Of a DNA stretch of 64,000 nucleotides, positions 26,249 to 58,723 are shown in pieces. Origin of the DNA: Escherichia coli (GTDB taxonomy: Bacteria; Pseudomonadota; Gammaproteobacteria; Enterobacterales; Enterobacteriaceae); NCBI RefSeq assembly GCF_003334765.1, contig NZ_QOWT01000007.1; one strand, 5' to 3'. The position numbers and the translations under genes are program-made. Numbering within the stretch: the first letter of the stretch is position 1; each line of letters opens with the position of its first letter. Below the pieces are notes generated by a model. The model did not search any database, was not told the origin of the DNA, and saw only the letters and a list, made by a program, of their open reading frames with translations.

Positions 26249-27652
26249 GTGTCACTTTCGCTTTGGCAGCAGTGTCTTGCCCGATTGCAGGATGAGTTAC
26301 CAGCCACAGAATTCAGTATGTGGATACGCCCATTGCAGGCGGAACTGAGCGATAACACGCTGGCCCTGTACGCGCCAAACCGTTTTGTCCTCGATTGGGT
26401 ACGGGACAAGTACCTTAATAATATCAATGGACTGCTAACCAGTTTCTGCGGAGCGGATGCCCCACAGCTGCGTTTTGAAGTCGGCACCAAACCGGTGACG
26501 CAAACGCCACAAGCGGCAGTGACGAGCAACGTCGCGGCCCCTGCACAGGTGGCGCAAACGCAGCCGCAACGTGCTGCGCCTTCTACGCGCTCAGGTTGGG
26601 ATAACGTCCCGGCCCCGGCAGAACCGACCTATCGTTCTAACGTAAACGTCAAACACACGTTTGATAACTTCGTTGAAGGTAAATCTAACCAACTGGCGCG
26701 CGCGGCGGCTCGCCAGGTGGCGGATAACCCTGGCGGTGCCTATAACCCGTTGTTCCTTTATGGCGGCACGGGTCTGGGTAAAACTCACCTGCTGCATGCG
26801 GTGGGTAACGGCATTATGGCGCGCAAGCCGAATGCCAAAGTGGTTTATATGCACTCCGAGCGCTTTGTTCAGGACATGGTTAAAGCCCTGCAAAACAACG
26901 CGATCGAAGAGTTTAAACGCTACTACCGTTCCGTAGATGCACTGCTGATCGACGATATTCAGTTTTTTGCTAATAAAGAACGATCTCAGGAAGAGTTTTT
27001 CCACACCTTCAACGCCCTGCTGGAAGGTAATCAACAGATCATTCTCACCTCGGATCGCTATCCGAAAGAGATCAACGGCGTTGAGGATCGTTTGAAATCC
27101 CGCTTCGGTTGGGGACTGACTGTGGCGATCGAACCGCCAGAGCTGGAAACCCGTGTGGCGATCCTGATGAAAAAGGCCGACGAAAACGACATTCGTTTGC
27201 CGGGCGAAGTGGCGTTCTTTATCGCCAAGCGTCTACGATCTAACGTACGTGAGCTGGAAGGGGCGCTGAACCGCGTCATTGCCAATGCCAACTTTACCGG
27301 ACGGGCGATCACCATCGACTTCGTGCGTGAGGCGCTGCGCGACTTGCTGGCATTGCAGGAAAAACTGGTCACCATCGACAATATTCAGAAGACGGTGGCG
27401 GAGTACTACAAGATCAAAGTCGCGGATCTCCTTTCCAAGCGTCGATCCCGCTCGGTGGCGCGTCCGCGCCAGATGGCGATGGCGCTGGCGAAAGAGCTGA
27501 CTAACCACAGTCTGCCGGAGATTGGCGATGCGTTTGGTGGCCGTGACCACACGACGGTGCTTCATGCCTGCCGTAAGATCGAGCAGTTGCGTGAAGAGAG
27601 CCACGATATCAAAGAAGATTTTTCAAATTTAATCAGAACATTGTCATCGTAA
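26249..27652 (+). CDS. dnaA: chromosomal replication initiator DnaA
   Basis: 467-aa product from GTG at 26249 ([14 protein letters not shown]...); AAA+ Walker [12 protein letters not shown]; track start 26237 is an upstream extension. Confidence 0.95.
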
Positions 27653-32293: not shown

Positions 32294-32393
32294 TGCCTGA
32301 TGCGCTACGCTTATCAGGCCTACGAAAATCTTGCAATGTATTGAATTTTCATGATTTTGTAGGCCGGATAAGGCGTTCACGCCGCATCCGGCA
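32294..32393. repeat. BIME: two inverted REP units flanking an AT-rich spacer
   Basis: tgcctgatgcgctacgcttatcaggcctac (32294-32323) and gtaggccggataaggcgttcacgccgcatccggca (32359-32393) in opposite orientation. Confidence 0.6.
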
Positions 32394-42455: not shown

Positions 42456-42555
42456 CATCGTAGCCGATGAGGACGCGCCTGATGGGTGTTCTGGCTACCT
42501 GACCTGTCCATTGTGGAAGGTCTTACATTCTCGCTGATTTCAGGAGCTATTGATT

Positions 42556-42969
42556 ATGCGTAACTTTGATTTATCCCCGCTTTACCGTTCTGCTATTGGA
42601 TTTGACCGTTTGTTTAACCACTTAGAAAACAACCAGAGCCAGAGTAATGGCGGCTACCCTCCGTATAACGTTGAACTGGTAGACGAAAACCATTACCGCA
42701 TTGCTATCGCTGTGGCTGGTTTTGCTGAGAGCGAACTGGAAATTACCGCCCAGGATAATCTGCTGGTGGTGAAAGGTGCTCACGCCGACGAACAAAAAGA
42801 GCGCACCTATCTGTACCAGGGCATCGCTGAACGCAACTTTGAACGCAAATTCCAGTTAGCTGAGAACATTCATGTTCGTGGTGCTAACCTGGTAAATGGT
42901 TTGCTGTATATCGATCTCGAACGCGTGATTCCGGAAGCGAAAAAACCGCGCCGTATCGAAATCAACTAA
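42556..42969 (+). CDS. ibpA: small heat-shock protein IbpA
   Basis: 137-aa product [19 protein letters not shown]..., alpha-crystallin domain. Confidence 0.94.
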
Positions 42970-54712: not shown

Positions 54713-55897
54713 TTAAACGGGCTGCCCCTGATGCGACATCCGCGTCGCCAGCGGCAGCCAGCACAGCACGATCAACAATCCCATTAAGGTCATCAACAAC
54801 CCCAGGCTGCCCTGACCGGTTTGCGGCAACATCGCAGAGAGCGACGCCAGCACGCCGGAACCAATGTTTTGCAGACCGCCGACCAGCGCGCCAGCCGTGC
54901 CCGCCAGGAAGGGGAACGGCTCCATCGCGCCGCTGGTCGCCAGCGGAAACAGCATCCCGGCACCGAAAAAGAACAGCGCGGCGGGAACGAGCAGCGTCCA
55001 GACATTCATCACGCCAAACCAGTCGGGGATCCACATCAGCAAGCCAGCCAGCAGGCAGCAGATAACCGACTGCCACATTAACGTGGAGAAGCGTTTATTG
55101 GGACGTCCGGCAAACCATGCGCCAAAAAACGCTGCCGGAATCGGCAGAATAAACAAAATACTGACCGTCATACTGCTCAGCCCTAACACCGCGCCCATCA
55201 GCACGCCGGAGCAGGCTTCAAAGGCGGCAATCCCGGCCAGACCGCCAATCAGCATCAGCAAATAACAGTTAAAACCGCTGTTACCGAAAAGCGTTTTATA
55301 ACTGGTAAGCAGGCGCGTGCGCGGTGCATCGACCGGACGCGTTTCCGGCATCCAGCGGGCCATACTGAAGGTCACACCAGCACAAAGAACCAACAAAAAG
55401 AGATAACAGGCGCGCCAGTTCCACATCGTATCCAGCAGACCGCCGATTAGCGGTGCGAGCAACGGACTGACGAGAATCCCCATGTTTAACAGGCTGTTAG
55501 CATGGCGCAACTGTGTCCGTTCATATAAGTCTCGCGGTAAAGTACGCGCCATTACGCCGCCAACGCCGGTGCCCATCCCCTGCATCGCGCTGGCGGCAAT
55601 CAACACCGTCAAACTGGAGGTCGTGACCGCGACCAGCGTTGCCAGCATAAAAATGGACATTCCGACGAGGATCACCGGTCGGCGGCCCACGCGGTCGGAA
55701 ATCGGGCCATAAAACAGCTGTGAGACACCGTAAGTCAGCAGATAAGCGCCCATTACGCTCTGCACCGCCCCTTCACGGACGTTGAGATCGCGCGCCATAT
55801 CGGCAATAGCTGGAATATAAATGGTTTGCGCCATCTGACCGACGGCCACGAGTAATACCAACATCAATAACAAATTGACGTTTCTTTGCCTTTTCAT
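54713..55897 (-). CDS. emrD: MFS multidrug efflux transporter EmrD
   Basis: 394-aa product MKRQRNVNLLLMLVLLV... Confidence 0.9.
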   Translation of the reverse strand: MKRQRNVNLLLMLVLLVAVGQMAQTIYIPAIADMARDLNVREGAVQSVMGAYLLTYGVSQLFYGPISDRVGRRPVILVGMSIFMLATLVAVTTSSLTVLIAASAMQGMGTGVGGVMARTLPRDLYERTQLRHANSLLNMGILVSPLLAPLIGGLLDTMWNWRACYLFLLVLCAGVTFSMARWMPETRPVDAPRTRLLTSYKTLFGNSGFNCYLLMLIGGLAGIAAFEACSGVLMGAVLGLSSMTVSILFILPIPAAFFGAWFAGRPNKRFSTLMWQSVICCLLAGLLMWIPDWFGVMNVWTLLVPAALFFFGAGMLFPLATSGAMEPFPFLAGTAGALVGGLQNIGSGVLASLSAMLPQTGQGSLGLLMTLMGLLIVLCWLPLATRMSHQGQPV

Positions 55898-56074
55898 TAT
55901 CACGGATGCTTTTATAAAAATAATTAGAATAAGTCACTACGCATTCCCATAAATGCGGGAGAGGAATCTATCACATTGATGAATGTTAGCCAGATATACG
56001 CCAGGAATGGGGAATTGTTTAGCGGCAGAATATGTAAACAAAAGCGGCAATAAATGTTGCCGGGAGAGATGGTA

Positions 56075-56110
56075 GGGCGGATAAGATGCGTCAGCATCGC
56101 ATCCGACACC
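56075..56110. repeat. REP-like palindrome upstream of emrD
   Basis: gcggataagatgcgtcagcatcgcatccgaca resembles a REP unit. Confidence 0.4.
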
Positions 56111-56121
56111 AACCCGCACGC

Positions 56122-56155
56122 TAAATATAAAAGGGGAGCGGTTTCCCGCTCCCCT
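56122..56155 (-). terminator. Rho-independent terminator of tisB
   Basis: ggggagcgg / ccgctcccc hairpin; on minus strand followed by UUUUAUAUUU. Confidence 0.65.
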
Positions 56156-56176
56156 TTGGTGCGACTTGAATCTGAA

Positions 56177-56266
56177 TTACTTCAGGTATTTCAGAACAGC
56201 ATCAAGCAGTTGCAGTGCTGCAACAATGAGTTTGAGGATAAGAATGGCGATATCCACCAGGTTCAT
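56177..56266 (-). CDS. tisB: type I toxin TisB (29-aa membrane peptide)
   Basis: Minus-strand ORF translating to MNLVDIAILILKLIVAALQLLDAVLKYLK, preceded by aggag Shine-Dalgarno; too short for the ORF track. Confidence 0.88.
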   Translation of the reverse strand: MNLVDIAILILKLIVAALQLLDAVLKYLK

Positions 56267-56502
56267 ACGCGTCTCCTGTGGTTCAGGAGCACTGCCAGCT
56301 GACGTACCTTTCCGCTGCCTGTTGCCAGCTGTTGTGCACGCGGTATCTCAAGGAGAAACGTTGTGCTTGTTGACATAACACAGTGTGCTCACGCGGGGTT
56401 AAGGCGCTGACGGCACCACCCGTTTCAGCCAGGACTTAGTGCGCCGGGTAACGATGCGGCCCCCGCATAACACATTGCGTACAGTGATATTATAGAAGTT
56501 TA

Positions 56503-56518
56503 CTGTATAAATAAACAG
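56503..56518. promoter_or_regulatory. LexA box (SOS operator) in divergent tisAB / istR-2 promoter region
   Basis: ctgtataaataaacag = CTGT-N8-ACAG; candidate tisAB -10 TATAAT on minus strand at 56489-56494. Confidence 0.75.
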
Positions 56519-56560
56519 TAATATTTGGACAAAACGCAAACTGTGATCGATACTCAACTA

Positions 56561-56701
56561 TGCACTAAATACGTCAAAATTCGTGCCGAAATTGCGCGTT
56601 CTGCGCGGAACACGTATACTTTCAGTGTTGACATAATACAGTGTGCTTTGCGGTTACCAGCCGCAGGCGACTGACGAAACCTCGCTCCGGCGGGGTTTTT
56701 T
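56561..56701 (+). ncRNA. istR: IstR antitoxin sRNA (IstR-2 about 140 nt; IstR-1 about 75 nt at roughly 56626-56701)
   Basis: Plus-strand terminator hairpin with T-run ending about 56701; candidate -10 tatact at 56615-56620 for the short form; 20-nt segment 56628-56647 complementary to tisAB mRNA region 56370-56389; ends estimated from published sizes. Confidence 0.55.
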
Positions 56702-56830
56702 GTTATCTGCAATTCAGTACAAAACGTGATCAACCCCTCAATTTTCCCTTGCTGAAAAATTTTCCATTGTCTCCCCTGTAAAGCTGTGCTTGTATAAATA
56801 TTGTTAAACACAAAACCAACAAGGTCCCCA

Positions 56831-56929
56831 ATGACTACTTCCATGCTCAACGCAAAACTACTACCAACTGCGCCATCCGCCGCAGTGGTCGTCGTGCGTG
56901 TGGTGGTGGTCGTCGGCAATGCGCCGTAG
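56831..56929 (+). CDS. ivbL: ilvB operon leader peptide IvbL
   Basis: 32-codon ORF MTTSMLNAKLLPTAPSAAVVVVRVVVVVGNAP rich in Val/Leu codons, followed by attenuator hairpin. Confidence 0.85.
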   Translation: MTTSMLNAKLLPTAPSAAVVVVRVVVVVGNAP

Positions 56930-56952
56930 GGACTGGAACAACACACGATTCC

Positions 56953-56987
56953 AAAACCCCGCCGGCGCAAACCGGGCGGGGTTTTTC
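56953..56987 (+). terminator. ilvB attenuator terminator
   Basis: aaccccgccgg ... ccgggcggggtt hairpin followed by TTTTT, between ivbL and ilvB. Confidence 0.7.
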
Positions 56988-57034
56988 GTTTAAGCACCTC
57001 CCGGAAAGTCGGCCCAGAAGAAAAGGACTGGAGC

Positions 57035-58723
57035 ATGGCAAGTTCGGGCACAACATCGACGCGTAAGCGCTTTACCGGCGCAGAATTTATCGTTCATTTC
57101 CTGGAACAGCAGGGCATTAAGATTGTGACAGGCATTCCGGGCGGTTCTATCCTGCCTGTTTACGATGCCTTAAGCCAAAGCACGCAAATCCGCCATATTC
57201 TGGCCCGTCATGAACAGGGCGCGGGCTTTATCGCTCAGGGAATGGCGCGCACCGACGGTAAACCGGCGGTCTGTATGGCCTGTAGCGGACCGGGTGCGAC
57301 TAACCTGGTGACCGCCATTGCCGATGCGCGGCTGGACTCCATCCCGCTGATTTGCATCACTGGTCAGGTTCCCGCCTCGATGATCGGCACCGACGCCTTC
57401 CAGGAAGTGGACACCTACGGCATCTCTATCCCCATCACCAAACACAACTATCTGGTCAGACATATCGAAGAACTCCCGCAGGTCATGAGCGATGCCTTCC
57501 GCATTGCGCAATCAGGCCGCCCAGGCCCGGTGTGGATAGACATTCCTAAGGATGTGCAAACGGCAGTTTTTGAGATTGAAACACAGCCCGCTATGGCAGA
57601 AAAAGCCGCCGCCCCCGCCTTTAGCGAAGAAAGCATTCGTGACGCAGCGGCGATGATTAACGCTGCCAAACGCCCGGTGCTTTATCTGGGCGGCGGTGTG
57701 ATCAATGCGCCCGCACGGGTGCGTGAACTGGCGGAGAAAGCGCAACTGCCTACCACCATGACTTTAATGGCGCTGGGCATGTTGCCAAAAGCGCATCCGT
57801 TGTCGCTGGGTATGCTGGGGATGCACGGCGTGCGCAGCACCAACTATATTTTGCAGGAGGCGGATTTGTTGATAGTGCTCGGTGCGCGTTTTGATGACCG
57901 GGCGATTGGCAAAACCGAGCAGTTCTGTCCGAATGCCAAAATCATTCATGTCGATATCGACCGTGCAGAGCTGGGTAAAATCAAGCAGCCGCACGTGGCG
58001 ATTCAGGCGGATGTTGATGACGTGCTGGCGCAGTTGATCCCGCTGGTGGAAGCGCAACCGCGTGCAGAGTGGCACCAGTTGGTAGCGGATTTGCAGCGTG
58101 AGTTTCCGTGTCCAATCCCGAAAGCGTGCGATCCGTTAAGCCATTACGGCCTGATCAACGCCGTTGCCGCCTGTGTCGATGACAATGCAATTATCACCAC
58201 CGACGTTGGTCAGCATCAGATGTGGACCGCGCAAGCTTATCCGCTCAATCGCCCACGCCAGTGGCTGACCTCCGGTGGGCTGGGCACGATGGGTTTTGGC
58301 CTGCCTGCGGCGATTGGCGCTGCGCTGGCGAACCCGGATCGCAAAGTGTTGTGTTTCTCCGGCGACGGCAGCCTGATGATGAATATTCAGGAGATGGCGA
58401 CCGCCAGTGAAAATCAGCTGGATGTCAAAATCATTCTGATGAACAACGAAGCGCTGGGGCTGGTGCATCAGCAACAGAGTCTGTTCTACGAGCAAGGCGT
58501 TTTTGCCGCCACCTATCCGGGCAAAATCAACTTTATGCAGATTGCCGCCGGATTCGGCCTCGAAACCTGTGATTTGAATAACGAAGCCGATCCGCAGGCT
58601 TCATTGCAGGAAATCATCAATCGCCCTGGCCCGGCGCTGATCCATGTGCGCATTGATGCCGAAGAAAAAGTTTACCCGATGGTGCCGCCAGGTGCGGCGA
58701 ATACTGAAATGGTGGGGGAATAA
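57035..58723 (+). CDS. ilvB: acetolactate synthase I large subunit IlvB
   Basis: 562-aa ThDP-enzyme ORF. Confidence 0.95.
   Translation: MASSGTTSTRKRFTGAEFIVHFLEQQGIKIVTGIPGGSILPVYDALSQSTQIRHILARHEQGAGFIAQGMARTDGKPAVCMACSGPGATNLVTAIADARLDSIPLICITGQVPASMIGTDAFQEVDTYGISIPITKHNYLVRHIEELPQVMSDAFRIAQSGRPGPVWIDIPKDVQTAVFEIETQPAMAEKAAAPAFSEESIRDAAAMINAAKRPVLYLGGGVINAPARVRELAEKAQLPTTMTLMALGMLPKAHPLSLGMLGMHGVRSTNYILQEADLLIVLGARFDDRAIGKTEQFCPNAKIIHVDIDRAELGKIKQPHVAIQADVDDVLAQLIPLVEAQPRAEWHQLVADLQREFPCPIPKACDPLSHYGLINAVAACVDDNAIITTDVGQHQMWTAQAYPLNRPRQWLTSGGLGTMGFGLPAAIGAALANPDRKVLCFSGDGSLMMNIQEMATASENQLDVKIILMNNEALGLVHQQQSLFYEQGVFAATYPGKINFMQIAAGFGLETCDLNNEADPQASLQEIINRPGPALIHVRIDAEEKVYPMVPPGAANTEMVGE

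Follow-up and report, generated by a model that had tools for sequence, protein, structure and literature searches.

The tisB/istR module of Escherichia coli is the textbook link between the SOS response and antibiotic persistence, and the founding case of control by an antisense RNA that competes with standby ribosomes. LexA represses both tisAB and istR-2, and IstR-1 is expressed constitutively (PMC2826370) and acts as the antitoxin (PMC4147584). The primary (+1) tisAB mRNA is inert, and processing to a +42 form exposes a standby site, at which IstR-1 competes with the 30S subunit and induces an RNase III cut that leaves an inactive +106 mRNA (PMC4147584, PMC8145889, PMC5668327, PMC7708055). 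The toxin, TisB, depolarises the inner membrane, depletes ATP and promotes the formation of ciprofloxacin persisters (PMC2826370, PMC8145889). The locus lies on the chromosome between emrD and ilvB (PMC9040746).

We analysed a 64-kb stretch of E. coli DNA (the window, in whose coordinates all positions are given), in which a sequence-only reading had assigned the interval between emrD and ilvB to the known tisAB/istR-1/istR-2 system and had judged it not to be new. The stretch concerned is, as a whole, almost certainly the chromosomal tisB/istR-1 type I toxin-antitoxin locus of E. coli. Positions 56000-56800 are 100% identical over 801 bp to E. coli K-12 MG1655, in which tisB is annotated, as the sequence-only reading had expected of a BLASTN comparison, and many other E. 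coli chromosomes are also 100% identical across this interval. Because of this identity, of the scores of the encoded peptide against TisB equivalog models and of a full-length Rfam istR match (both described below), we conclude that the window carries the reference tisB/istR locus. The assignment made from sequence is further borne out by the LexA box, the predicted RNA duplex and the position of the locus. The locus is already known; the initial observation is confirmed and its interpretation supported.

The gene order in the K-12 annotation is emrD, ysdE, tisB, ivbL, ilvB, which places the module at the published chromosomal site. The list of open reading frames (ORFs) and the K-12 annotation place emrD at 54713-55897 (minus strand), ivbL at 56831-56929 (plus strand) and ilvB from 57035 (plus strand); ivbL encodes the ilvB leader peptide MTTSMLNAKLLPTAPSAAVVVVRVVVVVGNAP. 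The distance from the emrD start at 55897 to the ivbL start at 56831 is 933 bp, in agreement with the gap of about 930 bp described previously. That description had the size right and had taken the gap to be free of listed ORFs; the annotated 24-amino-acid ysdE and a REP element also lie inside it. ysdE (55979-56053, plus strand; MNVSQIYARNGELFSGRICKQKRQ) has no NCBIfam match. The REP-type palindrome, at about 56064-56108, gives a weak partial match to Rfam naRNA4, and in some strains a palindromic element of about 175 bp that is rich in GGGGAGAGGG motifs stands in its place. In a few genomes ISKox3 is inserted in the emrD-ivbL gap.

Several further elements lie near the module or elsewhere in the window. 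The attenuator hairpin of the ilvB leader is located just downstream, at about 56944-57005. The segment TTCAGTACAAAACGTGATCA (56714-56733), which follows the IstR terminator on its right, differs at two positions only in an allele that lacks tisB; because it is nearly conserved there, it probably belongs to ilvB control and not to the toxin-antitoxin module. Three other Rfam matches in the window exceed the gathering score: AsdA, an antisense RNA of the dnaA mRNA (26759-26839, minus strand; 101.9 bits), the ES036/CssrF sRNA (32316-32358, minus strand; 44.8 bits) and a ROSE_2 RNA thermometer (42490-42562, plus strand; 100.4 bits).

The toxin gene, tisB, occupies 56177-56266 on the minus strand and is present in the ORF list, as first reported, as a frame encoding the 29-amino-acid hydrophobic peptide MNLVDIAILILKLIVAALQLLDAVLKYLK; NCBIfam and the K-12 annotation give the same assignment. 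The peptide does match TisB on search. It passes both curated TisB equivalog models of NCBIfam over its full length (residues 1-29), scoring 69.6 bits against NF011340 (cut-off 53) and 59.9 bits against TIGR04459 (cut-off 38). Its GRAVY value is 1.62, and residues D5, K12, Q19, D22 and K26 are aligned along one helical face, a pattern consistent with an amphipathic helix inserted in a membrane. Searching the PDB sequences with TisB returned no match. The Shine-Dalgarno sequence noted ahead of the gene is present as AGGAG at 56277->56273 on the minus strand, 6 nt upstream of the tisB ATG.

Both SOS-controlled promoters of the locus are associated with a single LexA operator, TACTGTATAAATAAACAGTA (56501-56520), which matches 18 of the 20 positions of the 20-bp palindromic consensus that we used, TACTGTATATATATACAGTA, and is common to the divergent tisAB and istR-2 promoters. 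At up to three mismatches to this consensus it is the sole match in the window, and none of 100 shuffled sequences gave one. The box had been recognized initially by its bare core, CTGT-N8-ACAG. This core is indeed present, as a single copy in the 64-kb window (56503-56518), but 0.5 copies are expected by chance and 44 of 100 shuffles contained at least one, so that the minimal motif is not significant without its flanks. The TATAAT hexamer observed beside the box is located 6 nt from it, at 56494->56489 on the minus strand, and serves as the -10 element of the tisAB promoter as read from the sequence, with the -35 position falling inside the LexA box. On the other side, the box is 6 nt from the -35 hexamer of a candidate istR-2 promoter (TGGACA, 17 nt, GATACT; 56526-56554, plus strand), the only sigma-70-like site reported in 55900-57050.

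From the position of the TATAAT hexamer we infer that the tisAB transcript starts at 56482. With this numbering, positions +50/+51 read CC and +57 reads G, in agreement with the residues mutated under these numbers by Romilly et al. 2020 (PMC7708055). Counting the published mRNA length of 359 nt (PMC2577331) from 56482 puts the 3' end at 56124, in the T-tract that follows the terminator. The minus-strand transcript proposed from sequence, 56481-56135, was therefore nearly right and is better given as 56482->56124 (about 359 nt). The strong intrinsic terminator described after tisB (56130-56157, minus strand) has a perfect 12-bp stem, of which 8 pairs are G-C, and a loop of 4 nt, and is followed by the T-rich tail TTTTATATTT.

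On the opposite strand, the Rfam istR model (RF01400) matches 56572-56701 with 150.1 bits (gathering score 45), covering model positions 1-130 of 130. The divergent plus-strand unit ends, as had been noticed, in a hairpin and T-run: the IstR terminator (56676-56701) comprises a 10-bp stem at 56676-56699 and a T-run at 56696-56701. Two RNAs would share this end. IstR-1 is predicted to start near 56627, 6 nt downstream of a TATACT hexamer (56615-56620, plus strand) that reads as the -10 element of its constitutive promoter, which would give an RNA of about 75 nt (56627-56701) composed of a 5' antisense tail (56627-56647), an internal stem-loop and the terminator. In its minimum free energy (MFE) structure nucleotides 1-12 are unpaired, with an unpaired probability of 0.97, and are followed by two hairpins. 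The longer, LexA-controlled IstR-2 would extend from near 56561, a 5' end that is approximate and is placed by the candidate promoter at 56526-56554, to 56701, a length of about 140 nt that takes in the Rfam match; Vogel et al. in 2004 reportedly gave 140 nt. The antitoxin activity of IstR-2 has been reported to be weak, for which burial of the antisense tail would be one explanation. Within IstR-2 the Rfam consensus pairs GUCAA with UUGAC, and ViennaRNA predicts a tail that is mostly open, with a mean unpaired probability of 0.78 versus 0.97 in IstR-1. The fold of IstR-2 has a z-score of -2.8.

The complementarity between IstR and tisAB stems from a direct repeat, 258 bp apart, between the IstR-1 tail and the tisAB leader. 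The repeat had been described as 20 nt long with a single G-U wobble. The repeat and the wobble are both present, and its length is 22 nt (56368-56389 versus 56626-56647), with one mismatch (the sRNA copy has T where the leader copy has C) that becomes a U-G wobble in the RNA duplex; the published complementarity is 21 nt (PMC4147584). The leader copy (56368-56389, minus strand) is the IstR-1 target and, according to the literature, the single-stranded ribosome standby region. In tisAB numbering this target spans +94..+115, the Shine-Dalgarno sequence +206..+210 and the tisB AUG begins at +217. The target is therefore about 100 nt upstream of the tisB Shine-Dalgarno sequence, as published (PMC7708055, PMC8145889), and the published end of the RNase III product, +106, falls within it (PMC7708055, PMC8145889).

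The pairing energy was taken from the 22-nt tail alone together with co-folding. The best duplex between this tail and the tisAB leader has a predicted energy of -36.7 kcal/mol, about 10 standard deviations beyond 1000 shuffled tails (mean -13.9 ± 2.2 kcal/mol, minimum -21.4), so the folding of the plus-strand RNA against the toxin leader suggested earlier yields a duplex far stronger than the shuffled controls. Across the whole window, on both strands, the sole comparable pairing site is the complement of the IstR gene itself. A duplex prediction with the full-length RNAs was dropped because, ignoring intramolecular structure, it over-extended the pairing, and shuffles also reached -53 kcal/mol. 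A second similarity is collinear with the 22-nt repeat: GCTCACGCGGGGTT (56387-56400), located right after the IstR-1 target in the leader, matches GCTCCGGCGGGGTT (56684-56697) in the IstR terminator at 12 of 14 positions. On the basis of these two successive collinear repeats we speculate that istR-1 may have arisen by local direct duplication of the tisAB leader, although the 14-nt likeness could instead be due to chance.

We extended the analysis to other genomes. Of 5426 complete E. coli genomes, 4359 carry the 581-bp tisB/istR module, in every case on the chromosome. The other 1067 (about 20%) do not have it and keep emrD, ysdE, ivbL and ilvB. In one such genome, that of E. coli strain 9, roughly 150 bp of unrelated sequence stand in place of about 650 bp (window 56058-56710). 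The boundaries of the exchange are sharp, one shortly past ysdE and the other shortly past the IstR terminator; they were read by eye from this single example and are approximate. The absence of the module from some 20% of E. coli genomes is already published: the locus is missing from phylogroup B2, as well as from E. albertii and clade V (PMC9040746). Scanning a contig collection with the exact 20-mer LexA box retrieved at least 120 stretches across Proteobacteria, and is unspecific because the box is near-consensus; among the stretches that were fetched, four are tisB loci, one from E. coli and three from Citrobacter.

The three Citrobacter loci carry orthologues, with TisB 90-97% identical and an identical LexA box, and the antisense pair is kept in both of the two loci that extend as far as the IstR-1 tail. 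At the wobble position, Citrobacter IstR-1 has C instead of U, giving a perfect G-C pair, and an A->G change in the target at 56373 creates a new A-C mismatch. A comparison of the E. coli and Citrobacter IstR-1/target duplexes revealed no compensatory changes; judged from these alignments, the pairing is conserved and not covarying. Two Citrobacter orthologues share an 11-nt deletion at the predicted IstR-2 start, aligned to window 56556-56566. They keep the istR-2 promoter hexamers and the hairpin specific to IstR-2, in which the C-A mismatch at 56597/56612 becomes U-G, a pair-preserving change.

Thermodynamic folding of the tisAB mRNA provides a possible structural basis for the inertness of its primary form. 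In the MFE structures the tisB Shine-Dalgarno sequence (AGGAG, 56277->56273) is buried in the hairpin CUCCUGAACCACAGGAG (56273-56289, minus strand), with a predicted unpaired probability of 0.01-0.06 across the +1, +42 and +106 isoforms. In the +1 mRNA, 5' nucleotides 8-21 pair with +84..+98, a segment that abuts and overlaps the IstR-1 target. Removing the first 41 nt raises the predicted accessibility of the target only modestly, from 0.38 (+1) to 0.48 (+42). The tisB ribosome-binding site is thus predicted to be sequestered and the standby site to be occluded in the primary transcript. The same 5' region contains CATAACACATTG (56466-56477; +6..+17 of the tisAB mRNA), a third, partial copy (11 of 12 positions) of the core of the IstR/target repeat. 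The inhibitory 5' end of the tisAB mRNA, predicted to fold back on +84..+98, resembles IstR-1 in sequence.

The following sequence of events, which nothing in the analysis contradicts, would account for these features; its transcripts, +42 processing, RNase III cleavage, ribosome standby, toxicity and persistence are drawn from the literature on the identical sequence. Without DNA damage, LexA bound at 56501-56520 would repress the leftward tisAB and rightward istR-2 promoters, and a separate promoter would supply IstR-1 constitutively. The primary tisAB mRNA (+1 = 56482) would be untranslatable, with the tisB Shine-Dalgarno sequence locked in a hairpin and the 5' end folded onto the loading region that lies upstream of tisB. 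Once processed to the +42 form, the mRNA would expose a single-stranded standby site at 56368-56389, some 100 nt ahead of the tisB ribosome-binding site, where a 30S subunit with protein S1 could load before moving to the start codon of tisB. IstR-1 would pair with the standby site over 21-22 nt through its single-stranded 5' tail, blocking standby loading and triggering RNase III cleavage to the inactive +106 mRNA. Under strong SOS induction the tisAB mRNA would outnumber IstR-1, and TisB, as a 29-amino-acid amphipathic membrane helix, would enter the inner membrane and collapse the proton motive force and ATP, producing dormant, drug-tolerant cells.

In this scheme IstR-2 may be more than a redundant antitoxin and have a role of its own. 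The 5' domain that is specific to it (about 56561-56626) and its promoter might be needed in cis or in trans for tisB expression, or IstR-2 might target another mRNA present during the SOS response. We regard such a role as possible yet rather unlikely. Such a role is compatible with the fact that Citrobacter retains both the istR-2 promoter hexamers and the hairpin specific to IstR-2, the latter with changes that preserve pairing. Deletion of the istR-2 promoter reduced persisters as much as deletion of tisAB, an effect that was left unexplained (PMC2826370).

Control by ribosome standby could in principle be replaced by translational coupling of the kind used by hok/mok, in which IstR-1 would block translation of a leader ORF, tisA, and ribosomes terminating on tisA would re-initiate at the overlapping tisB start. 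The layout invites this explanation: the 37-codon tisA (56263-56376, minus strand; in the ORF list) spans the IstR-1 site, the target at 56368-56389 includes the start codon of tisA (ATG at 56376), the stop codon of tisA and the start codon of tisB share bases (AUGA, 56266-56263), and such an arrangement is typical of translational coupling, as in hok/mok (PMC4147584). However, no Shine-Dalgarno sequence is visible upstream of the tisA ATG, where the sequence is GAGCACACUGUGUU, and tisA has no NCBIfam match. tisA is described as an untranslated ORF (PMC2826370), ribosome standby has been demonstrated instead, and a stop codon placed in tisA or a mutated tisA start codon has been reported to leave TisB synthesis and IstR-1 control intact (PMC2826370, PMC4147584, PMC7708055). 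Coupling through tisA is consequently very improbable, and competition between IstR-1 and standby ribosomes remains our reading of the locus. That the ORF, the repeat and the palindrome are accidental intergenic features without a functional module has a next to negligible probability: the minimal CTGT-N8-ACAG does occur at chance frequency and short ORFs are abundant (47 of at least 20 amino acids in 3 kb), but the K-12 identity, the family-level matches of the peptide (TisB models) and of the sRNA (Rfam istR), the energy of a duplex far outside its shuffled controls and a 20-mer LexA box never seen in shuffles refute it, and conservation of the module in 4359 E. coli genomes and Citrobacter and a large experimental literature on the exact sequence also stand against it.

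Recognition of tisB/istR here shows that a compact RNA-controlled module can be read from raw sequence, and adds no new biology. Because the sequence is the K-12 reference allele, there is nothing strain-specific to learn from the locus.

Compared with tisB/istR-1 of K-12, the locus has the same DNA, TisB peptide, IstR RNA, LexA box and divergent non-overlapping layout, and the same antisense pairing of 21-22 nt about 100 nt upstream of the tisB ribosome-binding site; we found no difference. The dinQ/AgrB system is similar in combining a small hydrophobic toxin with a divergent antisense RNA that acts in trans by pairing to a long 5' UTR, far upstream, in having an inert primary transcript that is activated by 5' processing, and in RNase III cleavage; dinQ is also controlled by LexA (PMC5668327). 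It differs in that its peptides and sRNAs belong to other families than TisB and IstR, and in that dinQ does not use ribosome standby, AgrB instead refolding the mRNA to sequester the Shine-Dalgarno sequence (PMC5668327). With hok/sok the locus shares the features of a type I system, an inert primary mRNA that is activated by processing, a leader ORF before the toxin ORF and a duplex that RNase III cleaves (PMC4147584). However, Sok is a cis-antisense RNA encoded opposite its target, whereas IstR is encoded in trans: the IstR genes (56561-56701) and the tisAB transcript (56124-56482) do not overlap. hok also requires translation of mok, whereas tisA is untranslated, and hok is processed at its 3' end and tisAB at its 5' end.
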